From IMG/VR virus record IMGVR_UViG_3300031227_000018, positions 32,001 to 96,000 of that record: 64,000 nt of DNA. One strand, written 5' to 3'. This document shows positions 36,213-57,260 of this stretch, piece by piece. Position 1 is the stretch's first letter. The number at the start of each line of letters is the position of its first letter. Source of the stretch: a virus. Under the pieces are notes generated by a model that had not been told where the DNA came from, did not search any database, and was given only the letters and a program-made list of their open reading frames with translations. The translations under genes were made by a program, and so were the position numbers.

Positions 36213-36277
36213 GTGGCAGGTGGATTGGGGGTCGTTGATTTTCCATCCCCCAAGTGCGACCCTCATCCGCTTGTCAT
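36213..36277 (+). promoter_or_regulatory. Long GC-rich hairpin in the groEL leader
   Basis: GTGGCAGGTGGATTGGGGGTCG / CGACCCTCATCCGCTTGTCAT, about 21 bp with G-U pairs. Confidence 0.65.
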
Positions 36278-36307
36278 AAAATCGATAATAACATCATAGG
36301 AGGTCAA

Positions 36308-38029
36308 ATGGAGTCTGTAAAAGCAAAAAGGATAGTTTCTAAGCAGAGGTTTCGTGATTTGGTGATTCAAGGTGTGGGCATTTTATCAGAACCTGTAGTT
36401 GCCACATTAGGCCCAGAGGGTTTGCCAATCTTGATTCAAAGAGATGGAGCTCCGCCGTTTTTTACAAAAGACGGTGTAACAGTGGCTCGTCATACAAAAG
36501 TCAAAAATCCGTTGCTTGATACGATAATCACTTCATTAAAAGAAAGTTCTGAAAAAACTAATGAAAAAGTTGGTGATGGAACAACAACCGCAGTGGCTTT
36601 GTCTGCCGCTATTATTCGTGAGGGGATGAAACAGATAAAATCTGGAATTGTCACTCCACAAGAATTGGTTAATGGTATTCGTAAATTAGGAGATCTGTTT
36701 CCAGCTGTTTTAGAAAAATGGGTAAGAAAGATAAAGACAAAAGAGGAGCAGCACAATGTTGCTTATATATCAGCTAATAATGATAAAGTCATTGCAGATA
36801 AAGTTGTGGAAGCTGTTGAGATGGCAGGGGAAGACGGTTATGTTTCGCTTGAAGATGGTACTTCAAAAGAAATTAAGGTTCAGTTTGTTGAGGGATATAC
36901 TTTATCGTCTGGGTGGTCTAATATCGGAGCTTATGGGACTACTTTTGTTAATAATTCTCAAAAAAATTCAGTGGACATATTGAAGCCAGCGATTCTTTTA
37001 TATGATGGAGTTGTTTCTGATGTCAATGATTTGGCTAATTTCTACATTGCTTTAACAAACAACGGGACTAGACCGATTCCATTATTAATAATAGCTCATA
37101 ATTTTGAGGGCGAAGCACTTAATATGCTTATTCTCAATAAGCGTGCTGGTCAAATTGTTGGGCTTGCAAAAGTTCCTTATTTGTCAACCATCAGTAGTCG
37201 TCGTTGGCTTTTAGATGATTTGGCAGCTTTGACGGGTGGTAAGGTTGTTGAGCATGATTCTAATGGTATTATGAAGGGAGTTTTTAGTGGTGAAAAAGTT
37301 AAGACCCTTAATGAAGGGGTGTTGGGGTGTTGTGATAAAGTGGTTATTGGTAAAAAAGATACGATAATTTATGGTGGTCATAGTGATGATGAAGAAAAGA
37401 TCAAGTACAGTGACACTTTGAGAGGACAGTTGCCGGATGCTGAAAGTGAATCGGAGTTTGATGTTGATTTGATCAAAACTCGTTTATCTAAAATGTTTGG
37501 TGGTATAGTGGAAATTCAGGTGGGCGGTTCTACTGAATTGGAGGTTAGAGAGAAAAAGTACAGGGTTGAAGATGCACTCAATGCGACGCGTGCTGCAACT
37601 GAAATGGGTGTAGTTCCTGGTGGTGGGATTGTTTTTTTCAATCTAGCAGAAATTTTCTTAAAAGATTATTTAAGAGATAATGTTCATATGGCAATAGCTA
37701 TTAAAGTCATGAAAGAAGCGTTAAAAGATCCCCTTAGAATTATATTGTCAAACGCTGATATTAAACCTGATGAGATAATCGGTGATCTTTTAAAGACAGT
37801 GCGGTCGCACCCTCTCAGGGGTTATGATGCGAAAAAGAAGGTTTTAGTGGAGAATATGATGGATGCAGGGATTATGGATCCTCTTAAGGTGTCAATTTTG
37901 GCTCTTAGAAGTGCGATTTCAATATCTTGTGAATTATTGTGTGGTGGTGGAATGTTGGCTTTTGATGAAGGCACTGACAATCCTTCACAATCTGACTTTT
38001 ATGTTAATGAATCCAATCAGGAGGTGTAG
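36308..38029 (+). CDS. groEL: Phage GroEL-like chaperonin
   Basis: TLGPEG, TKDGVTVA, GDGTTTA, RVEDALNATRAA, GVVPGGG, GIMDPLKV. Confidence 0.95.
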   Translation: MESVKAKRIVSKQRFRDLVIQGVGILSEPVVATLGPEGLPILIQRDGAPPFFTKDGVTVARHTKVKNPLLDTIITSLKESSEKTNEKVGDGTTTAVALSAAIIREGMKQIKSGIVTPQELVNGIRKLGDLFPAVLEKWVRKIKTKEEQHNVAYISANNDKVIADKVVEAVEMAGEDGYVSLEDGTSKEIKVQFVEGYTLSSGWSNIGAYGTTFVNNSQKNSVDILKPAILLYDGVVSDVNDLANFYIALTNNGTRPIPLLIIAHNFEGEALNMLILNKRAGQIVGLAKVPYLSTISSRRWLLDDLAALTGGKVVEHDSNGIMKGVFSGEKVKTLNEGVLGCCDKVVIGKKDTIIYGGHSDDEEKIKYSDTLRGQLPDAESESEFDVDLIKTRLSKMFGGIVEIQVGGSTELEVREKKYRVEDALNATRAATEMGVVPGGGIVFFNLAEIFLKDYLRDNVHMAIAIKVMKEALKDPLRIILSNADIKPDEIIGDLLKTVRSHPLRGYDAKKKVLVENMMDAGIMDPLKVSILALRSAISISCELLCGGGMLAFDEGTDNPSQSDFYVNESNQEV

Positions 38030-38031
38030 CG

Positions 38032-38274
38032 GTGGCTCAAATTGATCAAAAAGAACTTGTTGCATTAATTATTGAAGAAATGGATTGTAAGAAAGTGTTT
38101 CAAGCAAAATGGGTTTTTGATTGTGCGTTATGTGGAGATCATGTTGACGAAGGCACTGATTTTGTATTTATAGGTGATAAGCAGAAGATTTGTGTGTCTT
38201 GTCAAGCGTATATATCTGAATTTTTTAGTGATGCGTTGCAGAGAGAAGAAGAAAAAGACGGATGTTTAAAATAG
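38032..38274 (+). CDS. Zn-finger protein
   Basis: CALC...CVSC. Confidence 0.65.
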   Translation: MAQIDQKELVALIIEEMDCKKVFQAKWVFDCALCGDHVDEGTDFVFIGDKQKICVSCQAYISEFFSDALQREEEKDGCLK

Positions 38275-38306
38275 TTTTTTATTTTTGTTTATAAAAAGCG
38301 TAAAAG
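38269..38306 (+). promoter_or_regulatory. Phage early/middle promoter (clamp/modification operon)
   Basis: AAATAGTTTTTTATT-17nt-TAAAAG. Confidence 0.7.
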
Positions 38307-38342
38307 AAAGCAGTAGAAATGAACTGTATTTAGGAGAAACAA

Positions 38343-38552
38343 ATGGTTAAAGAGTGTAAGCATGACATATTGATAGCGATTTCTCAGGAGGATGAAAAGT
38401 TTTTGTGTTTTGATAAAACAAGGAGGTACAAGTGTCAGTTGTGCAGTAAGGAGATTTTGATTTTACAATATGAAGTGCGTGAATATAATGAAAGAAAATT
38501 GGAAGATGATGATAGGCAGTTAAATCTTTTTGAAAAGGAGGAAGTGAAATGA
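38343..38552 (+). CDS. Small Zn-ribbon protein with a QLNLF clamp-binding motif
   Basis: CKH...CQLC; RQLNLF near the C-terminus. Confidence 0.65.
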   Translation: MVKECKHDILIAISQEDEKFLCFDKTRRYKCQLCSKEILILQYEVREYNERKLEDDDRQLNLFEKEEVK

Positions 38553-39250
38553 AAGTAAAATCGTTGATATTTAAAGATTATTTAAGGCAGTCATGTATGG
38601 CAGGATCAGCAGCAGTTGGAGAATGTTTTCTTGATTTTAAGGATGAGGGTGTTGAGTTGTTGACAGTTACTGCAGCGAATAATGTTATGGTTAATTCATT
38701 TTTGTTAAAGAAAAATTTTGAAGAATACGAAGTGTTTGGTAAAATTGGGATAGACAATCTATCCAACTTGATGAAGTTGCTTGAACGTATTGAGAGCGAA
38801 CATATTGCTGTTGAGAAAAAAGATAACAATTTGTTGTGTTTTAAGGGTGGTAATAAAAAGATTGAATTTCTATTGAAAGATCCTGAATATATTGAAGCAC
38901 CTCCAACAGTTCCAAATGATTTATCTCATGATATTTCAATAAAATTAAATCCTGACCAAATTCGGGAATTCCTTAACGATGTTTCGGCATTGAGTGCAGA
39001 TGAGATTTTGTTTACCACAGAATCTGGGAAACTATTGTTGGTGGCTTTAGGTCAACATAAAATACGCAACAAGATTGATGTTGATATTGACGGTGAACTC
39101 AATGCAAAGTTCACTTCCCTTTTAGTTGATGCTATTGGCAATCTTACGGGTAACATTAAGGTTGATTTAAAAAATGATTATCCGGTTTTATTTAGCACAG
39201 ATTTGAATGCTAATGGATTTATTAAAATTTTAGTAGCTCCAAAAGCGTAA
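38549..39250 (+). CDS. Sliding clamp (PCNA/T4 gp45-type)
   Basis: 233 aa two-domain size; IGIDNLSNLMKLL, LKNDYPV, C-terminal KILVAPK as in PCNA; adjacent to loader. Confidence 0.82.
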   Translation: MKVKSLIFKDYLRQSCMAGSAAVGECFLDFKDEGVELLTVTAANNVMVNSFLLKKNFEEYEVFGKIGIDNLSNLMKLLERIESEHIAVEKKDNNLLCFKGGNKKIEFLLKDPEYIEAPPTVPNDLSHDISIKLNPDQIREFLNDVSALSADEILFTTESGKLLLVALGQHKIRNKIDVDIDGELNAKFTSLLVDAIGNLTGNIKVDLKNDYPVLFSTDLNANGFIKILVAPKA

Positions 39251-39251
39251 A

Positions 39252-39436
39252 ATGAGAAAAGGTCAAAAAGTATCAGAAGAGATTCGGAAATGGAATGGGA
39301 CGAAGGTGTCCATTATAATTACGATGGCTCATTGAGAGAACGAGACATCAATAGGCAGGGAGAAATAAAAAGATATTACTCTAATTTTAGATTTTTAAGA
39401 ATAAATGAAATAACTGAAATGATAATACAAGTGTGA
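39252..39436 (+). pseudogene. Internally deleted NUMOD3 plus Vsr/DUF559-type homing endonuclease relic
   Basis: MRKGQKVSEEIRK joined out of frame to EWDEGVHYNYDGSLRERDINRQGEI...FLRI. Confidence 0.65.
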
Positions 39437-39443
39437 GGTTTTT

Positions 39444-40367
39444 ATGCGACTAAAAGATTGTGTTTTTGTTGAAAAATATCGTCCCAAGTCTATTGCTGAT
39501 ATAGCGGGGAAAAGTAAGACGTTTCTTTCTTCTTATTTGGAGAAGAATGAATTACTTCCCCACTTCTTATTTTATAGTACTTTTCCAGGAACTGGTAAAA
39601 CATCGTTGGCGAAGGCTTTTGTCAATGATTTGGGTTGTGATATTTTATTACTCAACAGTTCTGATGAACGTAAGATAGACGTTGTACGAGAGAAAGTGAA
39701 AATGTTTGCTAGTTCTGTATCTAGTAAGCAAGGTAAGAAGAAGTGTATATTTCTTGATGAGGCAGACGGTTTGACACGGCAGAGTCAGGATGCATTGCGA
39801 AATGTGATGGAAACTTATAGTAAAAATTGTTTTTTTATACTTTCTTGCAATTATATCAATAAGATTATTGATCCGCTAAAAAGTCGTTGCATTCTAGTTG
39901 ATTTTTCAAAATGTTTTAATAAAAAAGAAGTTTGTTCGTATATATCAAAAATAGTTCAAGAAGAGAGTTTGAATGAATTGGGTGTTAACGATGAAGTCGT
40001 GGAAAAAGTTGTGGAAATGTACAGGCCGAATGTTCGCAATATGGTTATGTTTTTGCAAAGAGTTAAGGTTTCAGGTGCAGAAGTTGTTGGAGAGATTTTA
40101 AACAAGGATGTTTATGATTCTTTTTGGGATCTTTTTAAAGAAAAGAAGTTTGCATCTATAGGAAAATTGTTGGCTGAAAATGATTTAGATGTTGAGTTGA
40201 TCAATAAGTGGTTGTTTGATAAGGCGATAGAAAATTCAAAAGAATTGGGGGTTAAAAGACTTATCAAAACTATCAGAATAATTGCTGAGAATGAAAGAGA
40301 TTTTGTTTCAGGCGCGGATAAGAATTTAATTTTCCGTTGCGGTATTTTTAGTATGATGATTGGATAA
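39444..40367 (+). CDS. Clamp loader AAA+ subunit (RFC small/T4 gp44-like)
   Basis: VEKYRP, PGTGKT, LNSSDER, LDEAD, SQDALR, LKSRC. Confidence 0.93.
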   Translation: MRLKDCVFVEKYRPKSIADIAGKSKTFLSSYLEKNELLPHFLFYSTFPGTGKTSLAKAFVNDLGCDILLLNSSDERKIDVVREKVKMFASSVSSKQGKKKCIFLDEADGLTRQSQDALRNVMETYSKNCFFILSCNYINKIIDPLKSRCILVDFSKCFNKKEVCSYISKIVQEESLNELGVNDEVVEKVVEMYRPNVRNMVMFLQRVKVSGAEVVGEILNKDVYDSFWDLFKEKKFASIGKLLAENDLDVELINKWLFDKAIENSKELGVKRLIKTIRIIAENERDFVSGADKNLIFRCGIFSMMIG

Positions 40368-40380
40368 CTGGGGGGGGCAG

Positions 40381-40797
40381 ATGTTCAATATAATCAAAAA
40401 CCTTTATACTCGAAAAGATTATGATTGGATAAGGGAGTTGGATGACAATGTTCCATCTTTAGTCATTTTCAATTACCTTTTATCTGACCCTTCAGTTGGA
40501 AGAAAGATTAAGAGTTTGGCTCCCAGTTTGTTCAGTATTCCTCCAAAGAATTTTATCGCTGTTTTGCATACGTATGTTCCAAAACAAAATAGAGCTCCTT
40601 TTCTTGGAGGTGTTCGTAAAAAGGAAGAAGACAAAGTTGTTGATGAAATAATGGATAAATTGAGGAGATATTTTAAATATTCTGAAAAAGAATTTTCATA
40701 TATTCAAAAGTATATTTTTGATAATTTTGTTAAAGATAACATAAAAGAATGGCAAATTAAACTGGGATTAGGAGGTAAGAGGCATGTCGTTAAATAA
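40381..40797 (+). CDS. Clamp loader small subunit (T4 gp62-like)
   Basis: Size and position; YVPKQNRAPF...IMDKLRRYFKYS. Confidence 0.6.
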   Translation: MFNIIKNLYTRKDYDWIRELDDNVPSLVIFNYLLSDPSVGRKIKSLAPSLFSIPPKNFIAVLHTYVPKQNRAPFLGGVRKKEEDKVVDEIMDKLRRYFKYSEKEFSYIQKYIFDNFVKDNIKEWQIKLGLGGKRHVVK

Positions 40798-41122
40798 TTT
40801 TGTGAACCTTGATTCAGGGTACAAAGAAAAAATGAGTCGGCTTGAAAGGTTGAAAAAAAGGTTTTCTGAATCTTTACCTGAAAATATAGCAAAATATAAG
40901 GCCCAAGAAATTGTTTTAACATCTGATAAGTTGGAGAGTGTTAAGCTAAATGCCAATAATCATGCAGGATTAAGACCTAGTTTAGCTTTTTATTTTGAAA
41001 ATGCAGAAGAAATTAAAATGGTAGCAAAATATTTCAATACAAGTTTTAAGCAAATGGCAGTGAAAGATTCCGGTTTGTTAATTGAGATTATTAAAATGTT
41101 GGAGGAAACGAAAAATGGATAA
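40784..41122 (+). CDS. Hypothetical protein in the modification operon
   Basis: Translationally coupled to neighbours; LAFYFENAEE. Confidence 0.6.
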   Translation: MSLNNFVNLDSGYKEKMSRLERLKKRFSESLPENIAKYKAQEIVLTSDKLESVKLNANNHAGLRPSLAFYFENAEEIKMVAKYFNTSFKQMAVKDSGLLIEIIKMLEETKNG

Positions 41123-42524
41123 GAATAATTGTGAGATAGACAGCATGGAAAATTCTTGTGATTTGAGAGAAGAAGAGAATTGGGATTTTGATACAAAAGA
41201 AAGGTATGGAAGTCCACGAGTAAGTTCTGAATATATGGATTGTTCTTTGCCATTGACTTTTGATCAATATTCGTATTGTTCTATGAAGTGCAAATATTGT
41301 TTTGCATATTATCAAAAAGCGATGAATCCGTCTATGCGTTCTGGGATAAAATTAAAGGGGGTTAATGTAGACAAATTGATTAAAATGTTTAAAGGGGAAA
41401 TACCTGAAGACCCATATTATCATAATTTTATTAAAAAGAAGTTCCCATTCCATTGGGGTGGCCTTGCTGATCCGTTTGATATGGTTGAAAAAAAATATAA
41501 ACTTGGTTTTAAATTATTGGAAACTTTGGTGGAATTGAATTATCCAGTTATATTTTCTACAAAAGGAACATTACCCTCACAAGAACCCTATTATTCTTTG
41601 TTTAAGAATGCTGCAAAAAATAAGAATTTTGCATTTCAGTTCAGTATTATTGCTAATTCCGATGAGTTATCGAAAAAGATAGATGTTGCAGTTCCGACAA
41701 CTTCTGAAAGATTACAGTGCATGAAAACAATGTCAGATTTAGGTTATTGGACTGTATTAAGATTAAGACCTTTTATAGTTGGAATAAGTGATATTGATGT
41801 AGAAGAGCTTATAACCCGTTCTTCTCAAAATGGTGCGAATGCTATTTCCACTGAATTTTATTGTTATGATGCTAGATGTTCAAATAATGTAGAAATAGCA
41901 AAAAGATTTAAGGAAATATCGCAAATATGTGGTTTTGATATCATCGATTTTTACAAAAAGTTAAGCCCTTCTGAGCGAGGTGGTTATAGGAGATTGAATA
42001 GAAATCTTAAAGAAGAGTATGTGAAAAGAATGTATACAACCTGTAAGAAGGTTGGTATGCAATTCAATATTTCGGATCCAGATTTTAAAGAACTTAATGA
42101 CAGCGGTTCTTGTTGTGGTTTGCCTGAATTAAGGGAACAGTATGACAGTGATTTGGTTAATTGGTCTCGTGGGCAATTAACTTATCATCTCAAGGAATTA
42201 CGTAAAAGATATTGGGCAAGTGGAGGTAAAGAAAGGTATTTAAAGATTCGTGATGTGATGGGAGATTCTTATGATGGTTGGTTAAAAGAACCGCGTTTTT
42301 ATAGTGATAGTCTTAAAAATTGGGCAACTTCTTGGGCAAAAGTTAATATGGGTTATAGAGACGAATTCATACAAACATGGAATAATACCAGGAGTTCTGG
42401 TAATCCGTACAATTATTTTCATGGTAAGATTAAACCTTCTTATATTGATGATGATAATAATGTTGTTTTTGAGTATGTTCCCCATGATTATGAGAAGAGG
42501 TGGAAAGAAGAAGGGATATTGTAA
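41115..42524 (+). CDS. Radical SAM enzyme (spore-photoproduct-lyase-like clade)
   Basis: DQYSYCSMKCKYC (CxxxCxxC), GGLADPF, STKG, LRLRPFI. Confidence 0.88.
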   Translation: MDKNNCEIDSMENSCDLREEENWDFDTKERYGSPRVSSEYMDCSLPLTFDQYSYCSMKCKYCFAYYQKAMNPSMRSGIKLKGVNVDKLIKMFKGEIPEDPYYHNFIKKKFPFHWGGLADPFDMVEKKYKLGFKLLETLVELNYPVIFSTKGTLPSQEPYYSLFKNAAKNKNFAFQFSIIANSDELSKKIDVAVPTTSERLQCMKTMSDLGYWTVLRLRPFIVGISDIDVEELITRSSQNGANAISTEFYCYDARCSNNVEIAKRFKEISQICGFDIIDFYKKLSPSERGGYRRLNRNLKEEYVKRMYTTCKKVGMQFNISDPDFKELNDSGSCCGLPELREQYDSDLVNWSRGQLTYHLKELRKRYWASGGKERYLKIRDVMGDSYDGWLKEPRFYSDSLKNWATSWAKVNMGYRDEFIQTWNNTRSSGNPYNYFHGKIKPSYIDDDNNVVFEYVPHDYEKRWKEEGIL

Positions 42525-43262
42525 ATGGGAATAAAATATTGTAGGTCTTGTTGTCAAATGACTAGTCACGGTTTAAATGACAGGTGTTTAAAGTGCGGAA
42601 AAAATAATTTAATTCAAAAAAATATATTGGGGGAAGAATGTTGGGTTAGAAAAGATACTTGGGATGAAAATATTTTTAAAGAAATGGGATTGTATTTGAA
42701 AAAGATTTCTTTAACTCCTGAGGATGTCTGGCTGGATGTAGGCGGTAACATAGGGAGTTTTTGTAAAAAAATTGCCAAAGAAGTTGCCACTGTTATTGCT
42801 TATGAGCCAGATGAAAATAATTTTGAACTTTTAAAGAAAAATAATGAAGAAAGTGATAATATTATTTTTGTAAATAAAGCTGTTATTGGAAATGCTGATA
42901 TTGTGAGGGATTTTTATTTGAATCAAAAAACCAATAAGAGTACACATTCTTTTTTTGTTAAACGTGGAAGGGAACGCGTTGAGGTTGGATGTGAGAATGT
43001 TAATGAGATAATTCAAAAGTATAAAGTTGATAAAATAAAAATTGATTGTGAGGGGAGTGAGTACGAAATCATAAAATCTATTGTTGATTTTTCTTCAATT
43101 AAAGAAATATTTGTGGAATTTCATTTAAATATTTTATGTAAAAAGAATGATTTAACTAAGTACAGGGAAGTTATTAAAATCCTTAAAAAGAATTTTGCGT
43201 ATTTGGAGTATCCGGAGGATGTTAAAAAAAATTGGCATGTTTATATTTATGTGAAAAAATAA
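42525..43262 (+). CDS. FkbM-family methyltransferase
   Basis: LDVGGNIG, AYEPDENN, KIDCEGSEYEI, VEFH; N-terminal Zn knuckle. Confidence 0.88.
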   Translation: MGIKYCRSCCQMTSHGLNDRCLKCGKNNLIQKNILGEECWVRKDTWDENIFKEMGLYLKKISLTPEDVWLDVGGNIGSFCKKIAKEVATVIAYEPDENNFELLKKNNEESDNIIFVNKAVIGNADIVRDFYLNQKTNKSTHSFFVKRGRERVEVGCENVNEIIQKYKVDKIKIDCEGSEYEIIKSIVDFSSIKEIFVEFHLNILCKKNDLTKYREVIKILKKNFAYLEYPEDVKKNWHVYIYVKK

Positions 43263-44432
43263 ATGAGATATATACATTCACAAAATAAAGATAAAGAATT
43301 TATCGATTGGAGAAACCCTTCTAGAAGGAAAGAAGGGTTTTTAAAGTGGTTAAAATGGAGAATGCGGTATGGAGATTTGGACCATTACGTTTGTAATAAT
43401 TCCTACAGGGATGCAATTGGCAAAATGTCTCCAACTGGTAAATCAATGACTAAGGAGCAGGCGCATTGGTTTTCTTTAATTTTTGGTATGACTTATCAAT
43501 CAGAAATGGCGTGGGTTATTTATTGGAATTTTCCTGATTTTTGGTCTATCAACATTGAAGAGTTAGAAAAATGGAATTTGGATAATATTGATCGACAAAG
43601 GTATGCTCGTGATACTAAATATAATAAAGGGAGGATCGTTAGTCAAGTCAAGTCCCTCCAAAATGAAATTGGTCCTTCCGGTTCTATTGAAAAGTTTTTT
43701 GGTGAATCATTGAGTGATGATGAAAATGAGTCTTTTGAAAAAGTTTTTAATTCTTGTATGAGGTTTCATAAGTATGGAGGTATGACTTCTTGGTTGACTT
43801 GTCAGTTGTTATTCGAAACTGCCAATGTACCGATTAAACCTGACACCGTCAGAGCCACCACACCTTGGAATTGGTCAGTAAGGTCGGGTTTGATGTATGC
43901 TTATAATAGGGACGATAAGATTGAAGCTACTTGTAAGGATGTTGAGTTTTGTGATAAAGATATTGAACAAATAAAAGAGTATGAAAAAGAGTTGTATGAG
44001 TTAGCGAAAGATTGTATTGATGAAAATGATAAAAAGATTTTTTCAAATTATTTATTAGAATCTCATTTGTGTCAATATAAAAAGTTAATGTTAGGAGGTG
44101 ATTATGCTGGTCATTCTTCTGGAGATCACTTTTCAAGGGCACTTTGGTTATCTGAACGGTGGCCTGAAGTAAATTTTGATGTATTTTTTAAAGAAGCAAT
44201 AAAAAAACATTGTCCGATTGTAAGGGGAAAAAGGGAGAGTAAACAGCTTCGGTTTGTTTGTTCTAAGACAGGTCAGATGATAAATATGCATGAGGACTTT
44301 CAGGAATTGCCTAATATGTATTTGGAATTGGGAATAAATCCTGATTGGTTTTATACTAAAGAATATGACGAAGAAGTGGGAAGTAGAGTTGATAGTTATG
44401 CAAATAAAATTTATAATTCTAATTGGTGGTGA
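43263..44432 (+). CDS. aGPT-PPlase2-like (amino acid:DNA transferase) thymine hypermodification enzyme
   Basis: YARDTKYNKG, HhH-like YGGMTSW, LESHLCQYKK...YAG. Confidence 0.78.
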   Translation: MRYIHSQNKDKEFIDWRNPSRRKEGFLKWLKWRMRYGDLDHYVCNNSYRDAIGKMSPTGKSMTKEQAHWFSLIFGMTYQSEMAWVIYWNFPDFWSINIEELEKWNLDNIDRQRYARDTKYNKGRIVSQVKSLQNEIGPSGSIEKFFGESLSDDENESFEKVFNSCMRFHKYGGMTSWLTCQLLFETANVPIKPDTVRATTPWNWSVRSGLMYAYNRDDKIEATCKDVEFCDKDIEQIKEYEKELYELAKDCIDENDKKIFSNYLLESHLCQYKKLMLGGDYAGHSSGDHFSRALWLSERWPEVNFDVFFKEAIKKHCPIVRGKRESKQLRFVCSKTGQMINMHEDFQELPNMYLELGINPDWFYTKEYDEEVGSRVDSYANKIYNSNWW

Positions 44433-44446
44433 AAGGAAGGGGTAAA

Positions 44447-44824
44447 ATGATTAACACTTATGATCTTGATGGGGTTGTTTATTTAGGAGATGATTATGAT
44501 GGTATTTATCCAGGTAGAGAAGACATCATTATAACGGGGAGAAGTATTGAGGAAGCGAAGTCTACGCATGAAATGTTGAGGTTGAGGTGCATTTATAGTC
44601 ATGTGTTTTTTAACCCAATTCCATTCAGTGCAAAAACTAGAGAATCTTCTGGTTATCATAAAGTTAATGTGATTAAAATGTTGATTGAAAGCGGTTATGA
44701 ACATGGCCTTCATTTTGATGATGATGAAATTCAGATCAAAATAATCAAAGAGCTCCTTCCCAATGTTCGTGTTGTGCATGTAGTTTCTGATATTGTTGAG
44801 AAGGAAAATGTTAGACATGATTGA
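44447..44824 (+). CDS. HAD-family phosphatase
   Basis: YDLDGV, IITGR, K, HFDDD. Confidence 0.82.
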   Translation: MINTYDLDGVVYLGDDYDGIYPGREDIIITGRSIEEAKSTHEMLRLRCIYSHVFFNPIPFSAKTRESSGYHKVNVIKMLIESGYEHGLHFDDDEIQIKIIKELLPNVRVVHVVSDIVEKENVRHD

Positions 44825-45317
44825 GGGCAAAATGTTAGAAATAGAAAAGAGAATAGTTATTGAACCTGAAAGTGTTGTTTGGAATCAGAAGGTAAAGGAG
44901 TGGTGCGGTCTTCCGTATTATGATAAAAAAAATGGATGTCCAAATTTCAATAAACGTAAGGGATGTCCGATGGATAATAAGAATATAGATGAAATTTTAG
45001 ATGTCAATAAAAAAACTTATATTGTGGGTGTTGTTTTTAATTTAAAAGAATATCGCGATGAAATGAAGAAAAAACATTCAAATTGGACATATCGACAATT
45101 AAACAATGTGATATATTGGCAAGGATCAATTTTTGGAAAAATGAAAAGGGAAGTCAATAAGTTTTCATTGATGAATCCTGGTTTAAAAATTGTTTATAAG
45201 CCAGAAGCATATGGAGTTAATTTAACAAAGATGTTATTGAATTCGGGTGTTCCGATAAACTGGAAGTACCCGTTGAGAAAGATTTATATTGTGGCGTTAT
45301 TAGGAGGAAAAATATGA
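44817..45317 (+). CDS. DUF2284-like Cys-rich metal-binding protein
   Basis: WCGLPY...GCPNF...GCP, PEAYGVN. Confidence 0.6.
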   Translation: MIEGKMLEIEKRIVIEPESVVWNQKVKEWCGLPYYDKKNGCPNFNKRKGCPMDNKNIDEILDVNKKTYIVGVVFNLKEYRDEMKKKHSNWTYRQLNNVIYWQGSIFGKMKREVNKFSLMNPGLKIVYKPEAYGVNLTKMLLNSGVPINWKYPLRKIYIVALLGGKI

Positions 45318-45832
45318 AAGAATTTATTGCAGTTATTGGTCAAAGTGCATGTGGTAAAACAACATTTGTTCAAAATGAATTTATTGGGGCAAATGAGATG
45401 GTGTTAAATAAAGATCCACTTTTACATACTGTTGTTAATGATTGTTGTTTATTGGGGGATTATGTTACGTCTGTGAGGACAAAAGGTACTGACAGGTTTT
45501 CTTATTCTATTTTACCAGATTTGATTGAGTTTATAAAAAATAAAAAAGATGAATACAATCGTTTTGTCGCAGAAGGTGATAGAATAAATTGTGAAAGATT
45601 CTTCCAGTCTTTAAAAGATTTGAAATTGAATGTTACGGTTTATGTTTTTTTATGTGATGTTAATTTGAGCGTTCAGCGTAGAGTTGATTCTGGTTCAAAA
45701 CCTTCAGAGCAATTTGTAAGGGCAACTCAAACTAAAACTTTAAGAATGAAAAAAATGGTAGAATCTTTAGGGTTTAAAGTTATTGTTGAAGATTCTAGAA
45801 CAGAAAACAATATCAAACATGGATGGTGGTGA
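45314..45832 (+). CDS. P-loop nucleotide kinase of the base-modification type (PLNK3-like)
   Basis: IGQSACGKTT, LGDY, GTDRFSYSILP, EGDR. Confidence 0.8.
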   Translation: MKEFIAVIGQSACGKTTFVQNEFIGANEMVLNKDPLLHTVVNDCCLLGDYVTSVRTKGTDRFSYSILPDLIEFIKNKKDEYNRFVAEGDRINCERFFQSLKDLKLNVTVYVFLCDVNLSVQRRVDSGSKPSEQFVRATQTKTLRMKKMVESLGFKVIVEDSRTENNIKHGWW

Positions 45833-45835
45833 CTT

Positions 45836-46216
45836 ATGCGTGAAGAACTTGAAGCAAAAATGTTTTGTCAATTATTATATAAAGAGGGGTATGTTGAAGG
45901 TACGTCTGGTAATTTAAGTTTTAGAGATAGAAGTAGAGTTAAAATAACTCGTACAGGTTGTACATTGGATGATCCATTTTTTGTTGATACAGAAAGTTTT
46001 GAGGCTTCATCTGATGTTAATTTACATAAAGAAATTTATCGATTGACGGATAGTGATTGGATTTTTCATGTTCATAAAGACCTTAAATTAAAATTTCTTT
46101 TGACAGATAAAGATTTGGATCTTCATTGGTTTAATGTAAGAGATCATGGGGTTTGGGTTGGATGTGGAGTTGATATAAAAATTTATAGAATTCTTGAAGA
46201 TGAGGGAATTTTATAA
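45836..46216 (+). CDS. Minimal class II aldolase/adducin-family protein
   Basis: GTSGNLSFR, ITRTG, SSDVNLHKEIY, HVH, HG. Confidence 0.8.
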   Translation: MREELEAKMFCQLLYKEGYVEGTSGNLSFRDRSRVKITRTGCTLDDPFFVDTESFEASSDVNLHKEIYRLTDSDWIFHVHKDLKLKFLLTDKDLDLHWFNVRDHGVWVGCGVDIKIYRILEDEGIL

Positions 46217-46248: not shown

Positions 46249-46285
46249 AATAGTTTTTTATTTTTATTCTAGTTTAAAGTAGAGT
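46249..46285 (+). promoter_or_regulatory. Phage early/middle promoter (replication operon)
   Basis: AATAGTTTTTTATT-17nt-TAGAGT. Confidence 0.7.
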
Positions 46286-46293
46286 GAGGGGAT

Positions 46294-47748
46294 ATGAATT
46301 TAGACAACAGATTTCCGTTCGAGTTGGCCCTGCAAAGAACTATTTTAAAAGTAATGTTCAAAAACGAAACATTTTTTTTAAAATGTATGTCGCATTTGAA
46401 AAGTGAATATTTTGAGAATCAATATTTATCTTGGCTTTATAAACTTATTGTTAGTTATTATAAAGAATACAAAACACTTCCATCAATGGAAACTGTTAGA
46501 AATGAAATATTGAAGTTTGAAGTTAAGGATCGAATATTGTATGAGAAAGTTTATGATGATATATTGGCAACTGACTACAAGGATTTGGAATATCTTTATC
46601 ATGAATTGACTGGGTTTGCAAAGAGAGCTTATTTTGTTGACAATATAAAGCGAACCTTAAGTCTTTATAATGAAGGTAATCGCAATAATGCATATCGTCA
46701 TATGAAGGAGTTTTCTCAAAGTTTGTCGGAAATAGATTTTGAAGAAAGTGACTTATTTGATTATTCGAATTTGTTTCCATTATTGGAAGGTCTTCGTTCT
46801 CCGAAATTTAGAATGCCACTATCTATAAAACCTTTTGACGAAGTTATGGCTGGGGGGATGCCAAAAGGTCGGTTGATGTTGATATTGGCAGGCGTGAGTC
46901 AAGGTAAGTCGATGGTTTTAACTAATTTGGGGAAAAATTTTATTCAAAAAGATAAGAAGGTGTTGTTTATTACGTTGGAGAATCCAGAGGATGAGCAAAT
47001 AACTCGTTTTTTGTCTCCTATGACGGATATATCTCAAGATGATTTTAATAAAAGAGAATTGACTGATGATGAAAAAGTCAAGGTTATAATGGCGAAGGAA
47101 AAGATGGAAAAGAATCTGTTTTTAAAAAGTTGGTATGAAGATTCCTTGACTATTGAACATATTGTTAATTATTGTAAAGTGAGACATGCAATGGATCCGT
47201 ATGACGTTTTAATTATAGATTACGTCCAGTTGATTAAACAAAGGGCATCGGAGCGCATGCGTGACCTGTGGGCTATCCAGGGTGATATTGTGAAGGGTTT
47301 GCAGAATTTAGCAAGGAATTTGAATATTTGCGTTATAAGTGCTGCTCAGATCAATAGGTCAGCAATGCAAAAGACTCGCAAGAGTAAAGGGTTCAAAGAT
47401 TTGACTCGGATGACTGATGTTGGTGAATCTTATAATCAAGTTAAGATAGCCGATATTGTTCTTACTTTAACTGTTTCAGATGCTGATTATAAGAATAGTG
47501 TTATGCGAATGTTGTTGGATAAACATCGTGGGGGTGAAAAAGGTATCTTGGTTGAGGTTGAGGTTGATTTTCCAACTCAAAAAATATTCAGTCCGGATTT
47601 GCGATGTAGAAAGTTGAAATGGTCAGATGCACTTAATCCCTCAGGAAATAGAGATCCAAAAGATTTGGATGAAGAACCTGAGAGTGAAGAAAGCGGGACT
47701 GATAATGTGAAGGTGTCGGAGGCTGAAATTGAAAAACTCTTATCATAA
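46294..47748 (+). CDS. Replicative DnaB/gp41-like helicase
   Basis: AGVSQGKS, ITLE, IIDYVQL, AAQINR, DKHR. Confidence 0.92.
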   Translation: MNLDNRFPFELALQRTILKVMFKNETFFLKCMSHLKSEYFENQYLSWLYKLIVSYYKEYKTLPSMETVRNEILKFEVKDRILYEKVYDDILATDYKDLEYLYHELTGFAKRAYFVDNIKRTLSLYNEGNRNNAYRHMKEFSQSLSEIDFEESDLFDYSNLFPLLEGLRSPKFRMPLSIKPFDEVMAGGMPKGRLMLILAGVSQGKSMVLTNLGKNFIQKDKKVLFITLENPEDEQITRFLSPMTDISQDDFNKRELTDDEKVKVIMAKEKMEKNLFLKSWYEDSLTIEHIVNYCKVRHAMDPYDVLIIDYVQLIKQRASERMRDLWAIQGDIVKGLQNLARNLNICVISAAQINRSAMQKTRKSKGFKDLTRMTDVGESYNQVKIADIVLTLTVSDADYKNSVMRMLLDKHRGGEKGILVEVEVDFPTQKIFSPDLRCRKLKWSDALNPSGNRDPKDLDEEPESEESGTDNVKVSEAEIEKLLS

Positions 47749-48706
47749 TCAACAAGATGTATTGAGTTTTGATTTAAAAGGGTTGTTGTCTTCCCATTTC
47801 AATAATTATTGTGAAAACAATAACAGCTATTATATGGCATGTCCTTTTTGTGGAAAAAAAAATAAGTTTTATATTCAGAAAAAATACAAGTATTTTATAT
47901 GTTTTGTATGTGAAGAAAAGGGGAGCATTTATAGACTCCTTGCACATTTAAAAAATATTCCGTCTAAAGAAGCGTATAAGATAATACATAAAATTAAAGA
48001 AGAGAATTTGTCGTATGATGATGAATTGAAATTGAAGTTTGTTGATGAAGTTTATGAATCTGAATCTGATGTTTTGAATTTGGATTTGAGTTCTTTGGGA
48101 TTTTATTCATTGTTAAAATTCAAAGAAAATCACGAAGCAAGGGAATATATAGCTCATCGCGGTTTAGATGATAATATGATACAGCATTTTAATTTACATT
48201 ATTGTGATAGAACTAAGAGGGTGATTTTTCCTGTTGAATTTGAGGACAAAATTGTTGGATATCAAGCTCGTGATATAACGGGAGAACAAGAACCGAAGAT
48301 TCTTTCTTCAAAAGGTTTTCAAAAGACTAGGTTTTTGTATAACTACAACAAGTTGCTCTATGATTTACCAGATTATGTTGTTTTAGTGGAAGGGCCAATA
48401 GATTGTATAAAGTCGTATGAGTATAATTCTGTGGCATTATTTGGTAAACACATGTCAAAAGATCAGCTTCATTTATTATTGAAAATACCGACTTTAAAAA
48501 AAGTGTATATAGCTTTGGATCCGGAAGAAGAAGAGGGTCGGTTTGAGATGATGAAAGATTTATCTGCTTTTTGGGAAACGCTGCTCGTTCCTGTGGAAAT
48601 TGGCAAAGATATAGGGATGTATAGTTCTTGGGAAATTGGAATGTTATTGAAAAGATCTCAGTCGATATTTGATTTTGGAGATCAACTAAATATAGAAGAT
48701 AAATAG
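47729..48706 (+). CDS. DNA primase (Zn finger plus TOPRIM)
   Basis: CPFC..CFVC, YQARDI, LVEGPID, ALD. Confidence 0.9.
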   Translation: MKNSYHNQQDVLSFDLKGLLSSHFNNYCENNNSYYMACPFCGKKNKFYIQKKYKYFICFVCEEKGSIYRLLAHLKNIPSKEAYKIIHKIKEENLSYDDELKLKFVDEVYESESDVLNLDLSSLGFYSLLKFKENHEAREYIAHRGLDDNMIQHFNLHYCDRTKRVIFPVEFEDKIVGYQARDITGEQEPKILSSKGFQKTRFLYNYNKLLYDLPDYVVLVEGPIDCIKSYEYNSVALFGKHMSKDQLHLLLKIPTLKKVYIALDPEEEEGRFEMMKDLSAFWETLLVPVEIGKDIGMYSSWEIGMLLKRSQSIFDFGDQLNIEDK

Positions 48707-48714
48707 AGGTTACA

Positions 48715-51700
48715 GTGGTGAAACCATCTTATGTTGCTCTTCATTGTCATAGCACTTATTCATTCATGGATGGTGTTGGTACCATTGAGGAATGGGTAAA
48801 AGGTGCAAAAGAAAAAGGTGTTGCTGGTTTGGCGATTACCGATCATGGCGATGCCTCATCTATGTTAGAGCTGTATGGGTTGGGGAAGAAACATGGTTTA
48901 CCTGTTGTTTTGGGTTGTGAATTTTATATAGCAATGTCAAAGGAGAAGGATAAGAATGACAGATATTCTCATGTTGTAGTTTGGGCAAAGAATGAAATTG
49001 GGTACAAAAATATTTGTAGATTGACGTATTTATCTTATCAAGATGAGAATTTTTATTATAAACCGAGAATAACATTCGATGATTTAGTCAAGCATAAAGA
49101 GGGCCTTATTGTTGGTTCAGCTTGTGTGAAGGGTGTTATTGCAAAATATATAAATGATTTATCTGATGTTGATAATGAAGATGCGATAAACCTTGTAAAT
49201 TCTTTTAAAGAAGCGTTTGGTGAAGATTTTTATTTAGAGATTCAACATGGCGATTTGACATATGAATGGGATGAAAAGAAAGAACAATTTTATAAAGCAA
49301 AATCAGTTAATATACAGGAAACTATCAATAGAGTTATTTGTCAATTGGGTAAAAAATGTGGTGTTAAAGTTATAGCAACTCCTGACGCTCATATGATTGA
49401 TAAAGATCAGAAGATTGTTCAAGACGTTCAATTGAAAAATTATTTTAAAGATAAAAGAATGTACCATGAAATTTATTATTTGCCAACACGTGAAGAATTT
49501 ATAGGAATGTTCAATGAAAAGCATCCATACATTCCCAATGAAGATTTGGATATTTATTTGGATAATACTTATGAGATTTTGAATAAGTGTAAAGATTTAA
49601 ATCTTAAGTTTGATTACAATTTGCCAAAAGTGGATGCAGCTAAGGTTCATGGTATTTGGGGTTTAATAGAAGAAAAAGGCATTATAGATATGAAGAACGA
49701 GGTTTACACTCATAGAATAAAAGATGAATTGGAAGTTATTATTAATAATGGGGTACTCAATTTATTGCCCTATTTTATTGTGTTAGAAGAATTGGTTGAA
49801 TGGTGTGAACGAAATGATATTCTGGTCGGTCCAGGAAGGGGTTCGGCTGCGGGTTGTTTATTAAATTATGCTTTGGGTATAACCAAAGTTGACCCCATCA
49901 AGTATGGTTTACCCTTTAGTCGGTTTTTGAATTTAGCGAGAGTTCAAGAAGGGACTTTGCCCGATATTGATTTAGATTTTAGTGATCAGCAAGTGGTGAA
50001 GGATTATTTGGTTAAAAAATATGGCAGGGAATACGTTTTTAATATTTGCGTTAATCAAACCTTAAAAGCTCGATCAGCTTTTAAGGATATAATCAGGGTG
50101 ATGGCTCCTGAAGTTAGTGCAGATAAAGCTAATCAATTGAGTAAAATGATTATTTTTTCCTCTGAAACTAATCAAAAACAGGTTTTAAAAGAATCGTTGA
50201 ATAAAAATCCTAAATTGAAATCGTTTTTGATAAATAATAGGGAAGTTTTTATAGCAATCACTAAGTTGATTGGACAAGTGAGGCAAAGGGGAACTCATCC
50301 TTCTGCTGTGGTTATGTCTAAGGTTCCTGTTTACGAGGTGGTTCCTGTTGCCAAGAATAGAAATAGTGGCGAATACGTTACTCAATATACCATGGAATGG
50401 TGTGAAAAAGCTGGATTAATTAAGAATGATATATTGGGCCTCAAGACATTGAAAGATGTTTCTGGATGTAGAAAATTGATAATGGGCAAATACAAGAAGG
50501 ATATTGATGTTTTTAATTTAGATTTTGAGGATGAAAAGGTTTTTAAGGAATTTGAAAAATGCAACACTGATACAGTTTTTCAATTTAACACTGATTTAGT
50601 GAAAGGCATTTTAGGTAGAGTTAAGATTAAGAGTTTAGAAGATTTGTCTGTTGTAACTTCTTTGGGTCGCCCAGGTCCGATGGATATGGGTATGCATAAA
50701 ATTTATATATCATGTTCTAATGATTTGGAAGAAGTTGTTTATCCACATGATTCATTGAGAACATTGTTGAAAAGTACTTTCGGTATTATGGTGTATCAAG
50801 AGCAAGTGATGGAAGCAGTGAAAATTTTAGGTGGTTTTACCGATGTAGAAGCGGATAATATTCGTAGGGCGATGGGTAAGAAAAAGATTGAATTATTGAA
50901 TGAAGTTAAGGATAAATTTATAGAATATGCAGTCAATAAATATTCAGATATAGATAATGGTAAAGCAAACAAGTTGTGGGATTTGATTTATTCGTTTGGT
51001 CGATACGGCTTTTGTCATGCTCATGCCATTTCTTATTCAATGTTGGCTTATATATGCATGTGGTTAAAAGTTTATTATCCATTGGAATGGTGGAGTTCAG
51101 TTCTTAGCAATGAAGGGGATGCAGACACTGTTAAGGAGTATTATGTAAAGAATAAAGAGATGTTTATTATGCCAGATATAAATAAAAGTAAGGATACATA
51201 TATAGTTGATGGTGATAAGATAGTCATACCGTTGATTTTTTTGACGAGGATAGGTGAGAAAGCTGTTATAGAAATCATTAAAAGACAACCGTATTCTAGT
51301 TTTAGGGATTTTTTGAATAGAACAGATAGGCGTTTGATAAATAAAAAAGTTGTGATGAATTTGGTATGGTCAGATGTTTTTAGCAATGTAAATCGAGGTG
51401 ACAGCAATAAGGAATTACTAAAAGAATATTATTATTTTATGGCGAACGGGAAGAGTAGGCCTCAGATTGCAAAGATTTTGGAAGAATATTCTAAAGACAT
51501 TGAATCATTGAATAGATTTGATATAATCAATAAAAAGATTGAGAGTTGCCCCATTTATGATGTAAATTGTCAAGAATATTTTAAAGATTATTTTAGTAAG
51601 GATGTAGTGTCTTTAGATAAGATTTTAAAATTTGAAGAAGAATGTAAGGTAAAAGTAGGTGGAATATTTGGTGGAATAAAAGTTATAAAAACAAAAACGA

Positions 51701-51891
51701 ATAAACCGATGGCTTTTGCTAATTTGCGGAATAATAATTGTTCGATTGATTTGGTTTTATTTCCTGAAGTTTATGACGCTCATAAAGATAAGATTAAGAA
51801 TAATTTATTGTCTGAGGTTGATGGAAAGTTTAATGTGCGAAATAATAAGAAGTCCATAATAGTTAATGGATTAAAATTCATAGAAGTATAA
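48715..51891 (+). CDS. dnaE: DNA polymerase III alpha subunit (family C)
   Basis: HCHSTYS PHP domain, GPGRGSAAG, PDIDLD, YGFCHAHA, C-terminal OB fold. Confidence 0.95.
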   Translation: MVKPSYVALHCHSTYSFMDGVGTIEEWVKGAKEKGVAGLAITDHGDASSMLELYGLGKKHGLPVVLGCEFYIAMSKEKDKNDRYSHVVVWAKNEIGYKNICRLTYLSYQDENFYYKPRITFDDLVKHKEGLIVGSACVKGVIAKYINDLSDVDNEDAINLVNSFKEAFGEDFYLEIQHGDLTYEWDEKKEQFYKAKSVNIQETINRVICQLGKKCGVKVIATPDAHMIDKDQKIVQDVQLKNYFKDKRMYHEIYYLPTREEFIGMFNEKHPYIPNEDLDIYLDNTYEILNKCKDLNLKFDYNLPKVDAAKVHGIWGLIEEKGIIDMKNEVYTHRIKDELEVIINNGVLNLLPYFIVLEELVEWCERNDILVGPGRGSAAGCLLNYALGITKVDPIKYGLPFSRFLNLARVQEGTLPDIDLDFSDQQVVKDYLVKKYGREYVFNICVNQTLKARSAFKDIIRVMAPEVSADKANQLSKMIIFSSETNQKQVLKESLNKNPKLKSFLINNREVFIAITKLIGQVRQRGTHPSAVVMSKVPVYEVVPVAKNRNSGEYVTQYTMEWCEKAGLIKNDILGLKTLKDVSGCRKLIMGKYKKDIDVFNLDFEDEKVFKEFEKCNTDTVFQFNTDLVKGILGRVKIKSLEDLSVVTSLGRPGPMDMGMHKIYISCSNDLEEVVYPHDSLRTLLKSTFGIMVYQEQVMEAVKILGGFTDVEADNIRRAMGKKKIELLNEVKDKFIEYAVNKYSDIDNGKANKLWDLIYSFGRYGFCHAHAISYSMLAYICMWLKVYYPLEWWSSVLSNEGDADTVKEYYVKNKEMFIMPDINKSKDTYIVDGDKIVIPLIFLTRIGEKAVIEIIKRQPYSSFRDFLNRTDRRLINKKVVMNLVWSDVFSNVNRGDSNKELLKEYYYFMANGKSRPQIAKILEEYSKDIESLNRFDIINKKIESCPIYDVNCQEYFKDYFSKDVVSLDKILKFEEECKVKVGGIFGGIKVIKTKTNKPMAFANLRNNNCSIDLVLFPEVYDAHKDKIKNNLLSEVDGKFNVRNNKKSIIVNGLKFIEV

Positions 51892-56204: not shown

Positions 56205-57260
56205 GTGAATTATTTAATTGTTGGGGATTTACATTTGAAGTTGAATAATCTTGAAGCTGCGGATTTATTCTTTGATTATTTGTTTGAAGAGATAAAGAAA
56301 AAGGGGAAGGATGTTGAAGTGTTTTTTTTGGGGGATATTTATGAAGTAAAATCTATAATTAGAGTTGAAGTTCAAAATTATTTTTACAATAAGTTGAGTA
56401 AAATTAGTGATAATGTAAAGGCGATTTATTTAATTTTAGGTAATCATGATTATACGAATAAGAATCTAGTTGACCATGCCTTTAATTTTGGTTGTGAAAA
56501 GCTCATTAAAAATTTGAAAGTTATTGATAAGCCATCTATTTTGAATGATGGTATATGGGCAATTCCATATTGTGAGAATAGTCAAGATTTTATAAAACGG
56601 TTAGCAGATCTCACTTCAACAGTAGAAATTAAAAAACCTAAGATCATTTTTTGTCATCAAGCGTTTAATGGGTTCGCTTACAGTGTTCGAAGTGGGGTTA
56701 AAGAAGAGAATGGTGTTGATCTTGAGAAGGTCAAGTTTGATGGTTGTAAGGTTATTGCAGGTCATTTTCATTCATTTCAAGAAAAAGATGTCATTGTTTA
56801 TCTTGGTACACCATTTGCCCACACTTTTTCTGAAGCTAATGAGAGCAAAAAGATATTGTGGATAAAAGATGATAAGTGGGAGTATTTATCAACTGGAGAT
56901 AAAGTTCCACGATACTGTATTTTTGATACTAATTTTAATGAATTATTGGGCGGTAAAAAGTTTGGATATAAGGAAAACGATCATGTTAAGTTTTTGATAT
57001 CTGATAAAGAGGAAAATTGCAAAAAAGTTACGAAGGATTTTTTAGGTTCTTTGATGGATGAAGGCAAGATTAAAAAGTGTGACAATGTTTATCTTCAATA
57101 TAGTTTTTCTGATCATCAGGTTGATATAAATATAGATGAGAATCAATCGGTGATTAGTATGTTTGAGGATTATGTGAATATTTATTTAAAAGACAACAAA
57201 TATAAGGGTTTGATTTTGAAGGTAGGTGTGGGGAGGTATTTGAAAAATGCCTCTTTATAA
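56205..57260 (+). CDS. Mre11/SbcD (gp47-like) nuclease
   Basis: GDLH, LGD, GNHD, HQ, GHFH. Confidence 0.92.
   Translation: MNYLIVGDLHLKLNNLEAADLFFDYLFEEIKKKGKDVEVFFLGDIYEVKSIIRVEVQNYFYNKLSKISDNVKAIYLILGNHDYTNKNLVDHAFNFGCEKLIKNLKVIDKPSILNDGIWAIPYCENSQDFIKRLADLTSTVEIKKPKIIFCHQAFNGFAYSVRSGVKEENGVDLEKVKFDGCKVIAGHFHSFQEKDVIVYLGTPFAHTFSEANESKKILWIKDDKWEYLSTGDKVPRYCIFDTNFNELLGGKKFGYKENDHVKFLISDKEENCKKVTKDFLGSLMDEGKIKKCDNVYLQYSFSDHQVDINIDENQSVISMFEDYVNIYLKDNKYKGLILKVGVGRYLKNASL

Follow-up and report, generated by a model that had tools for sequence, protein, structure and literature searches.

The stretch of viral DNA considered here (the window, 64,000 nucleotides) corresponds to bases 32001-96000 of the IMG/VR record IMGVR_UViG_3300031227_000018, a genome of 109,218 bp with direct terminal repeats that is rated complete. 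The G+C content is ~32-37%, and the + strand, on which the genes of the clamp region described below lie, holds almost all genes. Our subject is a PCNA-type sliding clamp with its RFC-type loader, whose genes stand in one run with a radical SAM enzyme and several candidate DNA hypermodification enzymes, and which in related phages lie inside the replication module, together with modification enzymes that share a terminal peptide with the polymerases. Judged by sequence, the phage appears to have no close relative among cultured or deposited phages. Neither the window region (blastn) nor the clamp and radical SAM proteins (tblastn) matched any of 50,697 phage records; the nearest phage proteins of the loader are T4-like gp44 at ~33-39% identity, and the DnaE polymerase is at most ~30% identical to any phage DnaE. 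The clamp family comprises ~350 representatives (50% clustering).

The clamp gene (38549..39250) encodes a protein of 233 amino acids (aa), which is a true PCNA-fold clamp according to sequence, profile and fold matches. As a single sequence it matches phrog_223 (4e-12) and, over its full length, Sulfolobus PCNA3 (2e-9); a profile of 60 members of its family aligns with Pyrococcus furiosus PCNA at 5.6e-20, including the C-terminal APR/APK motif (...APRVEE). Its AlphaFold2 (AF2) model (pLDDT 96.3, pTM 0.91) displays the two-domain DNA-clamp fold, and the top 50 Foldseek matches are all PCNA (TM 0.79-0.87). T4 gp45 itself is absent from the sequence matches of the clamp in the PDB. The adjoining gene (39444..40367, 307 aa) encodes an AAA+ clamp-loader subunit of the RFC small subunit/T4 gp44 type, which matches phrog_168 (7e-64), RFC small subunits (2e-37) and T4 gp44 (7e-28), and the bacterial gamma/tau type at only 5e-7. 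The loader stop is overlapped by the start of a 145-aa open reading frame (ORF; 40360..40797), whose product is a candidate small clamp-loader subunit and a positional analogue of gp62. It is homologous to c6 (hhalign 96.9%), a small ORF found after the loader in the lineage described below. No similarity to T4 gp62 was found, the family profile has no match in the PDB, and there is no Pfam or PHROG match. The label "gp62-like", under which a preliminary description of this DNA had listed the protein, is thus borne out by its position and its lineage-wide conservation after the loader only.

The run continues with hyp112 (40784..41122, 112 aa), a member of the c5 family (hhalign 98%), which always stands ahead of the radical SAM gene (here 41082..42524, 480 aa, probable ATG start 41115). 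The radical SAM enzyme carries the CxxxCxxC motif, its AF2 model (pLDDT 89) finds the spore photoproduct lyase (SPL) structures 4fhf/4fhg as top Foldseek matches (E=6e-7, TM 0.58-0.60 by target), and its neighbours in the ESM Atlas are viral clusters labelled "DNA repair photolyase / SPL family". By motif and modelled fold it qualifies as a member of the SPL family, an assignment that does not imply lyase activity. Downstream follow an FkbM-type methyltransferase (42525..43262; PF05050, 2.9e-13) with the C-terminus ...VYIYVKK, an amino acid:DNA transferase (ADDT/aGPT-Pplase2; 43263..44432) that scores 57.9 bits against PF18724 (cut-off 26.2) and ends in ...NSNWW, a HAD-like phosphatase (44423..44824; DLDGV motif, phrog_415 at 2.5e-6), and a Cys-rich metal-binding DUF2284 protein (44793..45317), a family that neighbours the radical SAM gene in 9 loci. 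The last two genes encode a P-loop kinase (45314..45832, 172 aa; Walker A, EGDR) with the C-terminus ...HGWW and the N-terminal part only of a class II aldolase-like protein (45836..46216; PF00596, 4e-8). We regard the kinase as a candidate DNA 5-hydroxymethylpyrimidine kinase; it has no HMUDK match in Pfam and no Pfam match at all, and PF18723 is absent from the genome. Another block kinase of the relatives (c36) matches PF18748 weakly (6e-4).

ORF calls and family scans confirm the genes that the preliminary description had named here (clamp, loader, radical SAM, FkbM, ADDT, HAD, DUF2284, kinase and aldolase). Its characterisation of the run as tightly packed is likewise appropriate, except for a gap of 193 nucleotides (nt) between clamp and loader.

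Clamp alignments were too divergent to serve as a scan seed, and a search for related loci with the clamp alone returned none. The survey was instead seeded with the loader and a radical SAM alignment, which yielded 59 viral loci; removal of redundancy left 46 (47 counting the window), and their ORFs were then clustered (c5, c6 and so on). Seeding from these two genes biases the survey to loci with a radical SAM gene. A clamp-profile search of the relatives' genomes missed the known clamp of one of them (G006), and its empty result was not used. The loci retrieved represent a previously undescribed lineage of large phages.

Gene order in the relatives follows a recurrent scheme, with helicase c12, DnaG, c19, DnaB, c15, clamp, loader, c6, c5, radical SAM, a variable block, polymerase, c8, gp32 and UvsX. 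Among the 47 non-redundant loci, window included, the clamp is found in 34 and the loader in 37; the radical SAM homologue is present in 53 viral loci and in 43 of the 47. In seven loci the loader has been relocated behind the polymerase, and clamp, c5 and radical SAM are still adjacent there. Dozens of divergent relatives thus retain the linkage of clamp and loader with modification genes that the preliminary description had seen in this phage. What stays constant beside the clamp, though, is the pair of c5/hyp112 and the SPL-like radical SAM enzyme, whereas ADDT, kinase, FkbM, HAD and aldolase, which had been listed as part of the same linked set, belong to a variable insert. This block may contain TET-associated-type glycosyltransferases (TAGT), radical SAM-SPASM and B12 radical SAM proteins, a GT4-like protein, HMUDK-like and P-loop kinases, ADDT, FkbM and DUF2284. 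Since its content varies between relatives, we interpret the FkbM/ADDT/HAD/DUF2284/kinase/aldolase genes of the window as one version of a changeable cassette. A role of the radical SAM enzyme confined to the ADDT pathway was considered and rejected, because the enzyme is conserved in ~40 loci without ADDT and kinase.

The radical SAM genes of some relatives carry additional sequence. One version (L008:7736-10075) has an intein inside its CxxxCxxC motif, recognised by Hint/Intein Pfam matches, and others contain large insertions (L048:9986-12403, 805 aa; L061:7514-10879, 1121 aa). The polymerase genes of L008 and L061 likewise display Hint matches or splits.

The polymerase is the exchangeable part of the replication module. 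DnaE carrying a UDG domain at its C-terminus, UDG-PolA (split in some cases), plain PolA (G002) and PolB (G001) all occur in the lineage (L007-L068; G001-G011), and in the DnaE-bearing relatives the PCNA-type clamp is the only phage-encoded clamp found. The OB-type DnaE of the window is a fifth polymerase form around the fixed clamp/loader/radical SAM module.

Many proteins of the variable block share a short peptide at their termini. In relatives, block enzymes end in GGIRSWLK (the TAGT of L015), KGISSFLKR, SGIKKFLKE, GIMSFLKKR or KKGISKFV, and in the subgroup of the window the tails are -KLF, -SLF, -GWF, -KFW or -GWW. In its core, two spacer positions separate a hydrophobic residue from an aromatic-hydrophobic pair, and basic residues often flank it; the peptide resembles the archaeal PCNA-interacting peptide (PIP) box minus its glutamine. 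In the strict form G[ILMV]xx[FWY]h, the motif occurs in the last 14 residues of 30 out of 1073 ORFs, compared with 0.46% of internal windows, and is concentrated in TAGT (9/22) and radical SAM-SPASM (7/11). With a looser tail definition (GIxxFLKK-like or -LF/-WF/-WW) and a count restricted to ORFs no shorter than 150 aa, such a tail is present in 48 of 140 ORFs of the block versus 38 of 514 elsewhere (P=3e-14). A canonical PIP box (Qxx[ILM]xx[FY][FY]) or beta motif does not match in the enzymes of the cluster.

The same peptide is found on polymerases of the relatives, so that it is common to these and to at least eight unrelated multi-member enzyme families of the block. It is N-terminal on UDG-PolA polymerases (MSGIRNFFPS, MSGFFFP, MSNFFP and others) and lies near the C-terminus of DnaE-UDG (KKGLNSFF, SGIKNFV); in G001, PolB ends in KQGKLF and the kinase in KQKSLF. 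An N-terminal version is present in 14/25 c5 and 4/6 hyp112 members, and the hyp112 of the window begins MSLNNFV. Among the 144 ORFs of the window, only ADDT and the kinase end in WW (W frequency 1.2%), and six of seven kinase homologues have an aromatic C-terminal tail. Polymerases are canonical clamp clients, and we take the peptide to resemble archaeal PIP tails such as that of Pyrococcus RFC-L; together, these two points make the clamp its most likely receptor.

Outside the block, a gp47/Mre11-like nuclease of the window (56205-57260) ends in GVGRYLKNASL, a GhxxYLK peptide like that of the relatives' modification enzymes, and the upstream helicase c12 of relatives ends in ...KGWI or ...QGWI. 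The recombination module of the window also includes, downstream of gp46, a gene resembling GIY-YIG/NUMOD3 homing endonucleases (59972-60592).

The preliminary description had proposed that the clamp may serve modification enzymes rather than the replicase. As a general statement this is not supported, since clamp and loader lie inside the replication module and are kept whatever the polymerase family, the polymerases of relatives bear the same peptide, and PCNA is the sole phage clamp found in the DnaE-bearing relatives.

The phage of the window nevertheless differs from its relatives in the polymerase itself. DnaB helicase, DnaG primase and DnaE polymerase are encoded at 46294..51891, and this DnaE is of the bacterial type with a C-terminal OB fold, without a UDG domain and without a PIP-like terminal peptide. 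As the preliminary description presupposed, no PolB is present in the complete genome, nor is a PolA, and in the absence of family-A and family-B polymerases DnaE is the only one. Family-C polymerases have the beta clamp as their cognate clamp, a point already raised in the preliminary description, and the genome indeed encodes a beta clamp of its own, outside the window (genome 100738-101889, 383 aa). Residues 5-381 of this protein align to positions 10-386 of solved beta clamps (9e-9), and it matches PF02768 (36 bits) and phrog_947 (9e-21); on these alignments it is a full-length, three-domain DnaN-type clamp. It belongs to an operon (genome 99438-102765; L004:4438-7765) flanked by the portal/protease genes and the genome end, which also contains a 198-aa protein without assigned function, an FKBP-type prolyl isomerase and two small ORFs. 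Among 12 genomes examined, only this one pairs a beta clamp with an OB-type DnaE; none of the 11 relatives has a beta clamp. A gamma/tau-type loader was not seen in the genome, the only loader being of the RFC type. A segment of DnaE, PQIAKIL, aligns weakly with the internal region by which Thermus Pol III alpha binds beta, and there is no convincing canonical beta-binding motif in the protein.

Both clamp genes are preceded by the same sequence element. The 17-mer AATAGTTTTTTATTTTT has five exact copies in the genome, all intergenic and on the + strand (window 36147, 38270 and 46249; genome 99438 and 105578), which is far beyond chance; near copies lie at window 53296 (+), 36116 (-) and 34824 (-). 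The copy at 38270..38286 heads the clamp/modification block and that at 46249..46265 heads DnaB-DnaG-DnaE, while the remaining exact copies precede GroEL, the beta-clamp operon and a DUF932 gene. We suggest that this phage-specific 17-mer marks a regulon and has a promoter-like function. Several copies end in TAnnTTTG, which we take to be similar to the -7 element of Bacteroidota. The preliminary description had placed promoter motifs at 38269 and 46249; the repeated element is indeed there, starting at 38270 and 46249, it probably acts as a promoter, and no terminator was found between the two blocks. A generic scan for sigma-70 promoters and terminators gave results at chance level only. Directly upstream of the clamp block lies the GroEL-type chaperonin gene (window 36254-38029; Cpn60_TCP1, 4e-54).

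From folds, protein families, synteny and motif enrichment we infer that clamp and loader are the resident replisome clamp system of the lineage, and that the modification enzymes probably also dock on the same ring. We favour this reading, with about as much doubt as confidence. The loader would place the PCNA ring on primed DNA, the polymerase would ride on it, and the modification enzymes would attach by their terminal peptides and modify the freshly made duplex. The ring would then be a tool belt shared by the polymerase, c5/hyp112 and the modification enzymes, and the occurrence of one peptide on the modification enzymes and on the polymerases of relatives suggests a possible coupling of base modification to the replication clamp. 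In the phage of the window, the bacterial-type DnaE without the peptide and the DnaN gene behind the same 17-mer suggest that the replicase may use the beta clamp, in which case PCNA might mostly serve the modification enzymes and further clients.

Several observations weigh against a docking of modification enzymes on the clamp. The near-complete relative G014 has radical SAM, ADDT and kinase genes and no detectable clamp or loader, and locus L005 has clamp and loader with no radical SAM gene within 16 kb. The gene order is inherited within one viral lineage and is therefore not independent evidence of physical interaction. Counted per family, the enrichment of tails is weak (12/57 vs 20/195, P=0.04). 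In the window, such a tail is missing from the radical SAM, HAD, DUF2284 and aldolase proteins, and the tails that do occur (-WW, VYIYVKK) deviate from the canonical PIP spacing. The receptor of the peptide could also be another protein. Even in T4, the interaction with gp45 has been reported as not being the main determinant of glucosylation levels (PMC13216743). The locus of G014 (L072, G014:C1:50461-57787), from a 94-kb relative, has its radical SAM gene (33% identity), ADDT and kinase beside gp46, and the ADDT lacks an aromatic tail.

The strongest alternative, although we consider it somewhat unlikely, is a purely replisomal clamp, with the polymerase and probably a flap nuclease and the helicase as clients. 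The modification genes would then occupy a permissive operon slot that provides co-timed expression, and their tails would serve another partner, DNA contact or stability. This would fit the place of clamp and loader in almost every relative, with DnaB/DnaG on one side and polymerase, gp32 and UvsX on the other, the absence of another phage clamp from the DnaE-bearing relatives, the peptide on the relatives' polymerases, the highly variable content of the block, and the retention of radical SAM, ADDT and kinase in G014 without a detectable clamp. Against it, at least eight unrelated enzyme families of the block share the peptide of the polymerases, and clamp, c5 and radical SAM remain neighbours in the loci with a relocated loader. 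In the phage of the window, moreover, DnaE lacks the peptide and a cognate beta clamp is available.

A stricter reading, close to that of the preliminary description, is that in the phage of the window PCNA and its loader are dedicated to the modification enzymes and DnaE uses the beta clamp of the phage (or host). Such exclusive dedication is possible only in this phage, and even here we think it improbable. In its favour, the 17-mer that heads the replication genes also stands before a full-length DnaN, DnaE is of the bacterial OB-fold type without the terminal peptide of the lineage, PQIAKIL offers a weak alignment with a beta-binding region, beta clamp and OB-type DnaE occur together only here among the 12 genomes, and the genome is without PolA and PolB. 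On the other hand, the only loader seen is of the RFC type and none of the gamma/tau type was seen for the beta clamp, the beta-binding motif in DnaE is not convincing, and the lineage-wide pattern is that of a clamp serving polymerases. Likewise, the GVGRYLK tail of gp47 suggests clients other than modification enzymes, and DnaE may bind PCNA after all.

Small ORFs around the clamp gene carry clamp-binding motifs of their own. An 80-aa zinc-ribbon protein (CxxC...CxxC; 38032..38274; phrog_1581, no assigned function) has the PIP box QAYISEFF right after its second CxxC. A Cys-containing protein of 69 aa (38343..38552, no family match), whose stop overlaps the clamp start, has QLNLF near its C-terminus. 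The gap between clamp and loader contains a doubtful 48-aa ORF (39290..39436) with QGEIKRYY, a strict PIP match. QAYISEFF and QGEIKRYY are the only strict PIP matches in the whole proteome, and QLNLF, a motif of the beta-clamp type, is the only occurrence of QL[SDN]LF (0.03 expected); all three fall inside 38032-39436, at most 1.4 kb around the clamp gene. The products may be clamp adaptors, regulators or inhibitors, perhaps one per clamp type. T4 gp45 acts as a mobile transcription activator together with gp33 and gp55. That the clamp here is mainly such an activator, with the 80-aa and 69-aa proteins as adaptors, is very improbable: it would account for the small zinc-binding proteins with canonical clamp-binding motifs that flank the clamp gene, but no gp33/gp55 homologue was identified here and the enzyme tails would be left unexplained.

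No thymidylate-synthase-type (dUMP) hydroxymethylase and no TET/JBP was found in this genome; the hydroxymethylase is absent in 9/10 relatives, including all six near-complete ones, and TET/JBP from four relatives. Those genomes nonetheless encode glycosyltransferases, kinases or ADDT, which elsewhere act on 5-hydroxymethylpyrimidines in DNA. Relatives of SPL handle thymine-methyl radicals. Given the presence of enzymes of the 5-hydroxymethylpyrimidine type without a hydroxymethylase or TET/JBP, we speculate that the modified pyrimidine might be made, independently of oxygen, by the SPL-like radical SAM enzyme. In a more far-reaching scenario, which we put forward with little confidence, the SPL-like enzyme and c5/hyp112 on the PCNA ring would activate the thymine C5-methyl (or an equivalent pyrimidine position) in new DNA, in place of a nucleotide-level hydroxymethylase and of TET/JBP. 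DUF2284 might be an iron-sulfur helper of the radical SAM enzyme. Tail-bearing kinases, amino-acid transferases, glycosyltransferases and methyltransferases would then finish the modification on the same ring, which in the phage of the window would have been freed by a separately acquired pair of DnaE and beta clamp.

Sliding clamps are already known as tool belts, with T4 alpha-glucosyltransferase and gp45 as one phage example. If many unrelated hypermodification enzymes of a whole phage lineage indeed carry the docking peptide of the polymerase, this would extend beyond that example: replication-coupled hypermodification would be a general strategy, and the terminal peptide would be an easy mark in sequences by which further DNA-modifying enzymes could be recognised. 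A conserved SPL-like enzyme in genomes without a known base source likewise points to a possible anaerobic pathway, not described so far, that yields modified pyrimidines in DNA. The lineage shows three-way swapping of polymerase families around a fixed clamp module, and both clamp types in one phage provide a natural test case for clamp-polymerase specificity.

The closest parallel is T4, in which alpha-glucosyltransferase co-purifies with gp45 (PMC13216743; Sommer et al. 2004). In both systems a trimeric-type clamp and an RFC-like loader (gp45 and gp44-gp62 in T4) belong to a phage replication module; in T4, a post-replicative DNA-modifying enzyme binds the clamp, and clients dock by terminal peptides (the gp43, gp33 and gp55 tails). 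The present clamp differs in being closer by sequence to archaeal PCNA than to gp45, and the polymerase is DnaE, not PolB. Furthermore, many unrelated modification families have the tail instead of one, their genes are embedded between clamp and polymerase, and the binding is a prediction here.

The tool belt of archaeal and eukaryotic PCNA (Pyrococcus RFC-L and PolB tails, FEN1, DNMT1-PCNA) resembles the present system in the clamp fold and the APR/APK motif, and in client peptides whose h-x-x-aromatic-h core lies at the very ends of the proteins between basic residues. With DNMT1-PCNA, there is an established precedent for a DNA methyltransferase that travels on PCNA. The phage peptides differ in lacking the PIP glutamine and, for -WW, in their spacing; the host is bacterial, and the clients would be hypermodification enzymes.

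Thymidine hypermodification in the phages M6, ViI, SP10 and PhiW-14 combines a 5-HMUDK kinase, aGPT-Pplase/ADDT and radical SAM/PLP enzymes (PMC5889632, PMC8989533). The window parallels these pathways in having one cluster with an ADDT that passes the Pfam threshold, a P-loop kinase and a radical SAM enzyme, for which post-replicative action would be expected. By contrast, no dUMP hydroxymethylase or TET/JBP was found here, the kinase does not match HMUDK models, and the radical SAM enzyme is SPL-like and conserved even without ADDT and kinase. The FkbM, HAD, DUF2284 and aldolase partners are outside the pathways described for those phages.

For the second clamp, the counterpart is Bacillus phage 0305phi8-36, which has a phage DnaE with an OB domain and a phage PolIII-beta homologue (PMC3201878). 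Both phages combine a family-C polymerase that reaches into the OB domain with a beta clamp of their own. Two clamp types have not been reported in 0305phi8-36, whereas the phage of the window has additionally kept PCNA and its RFC-type loader.

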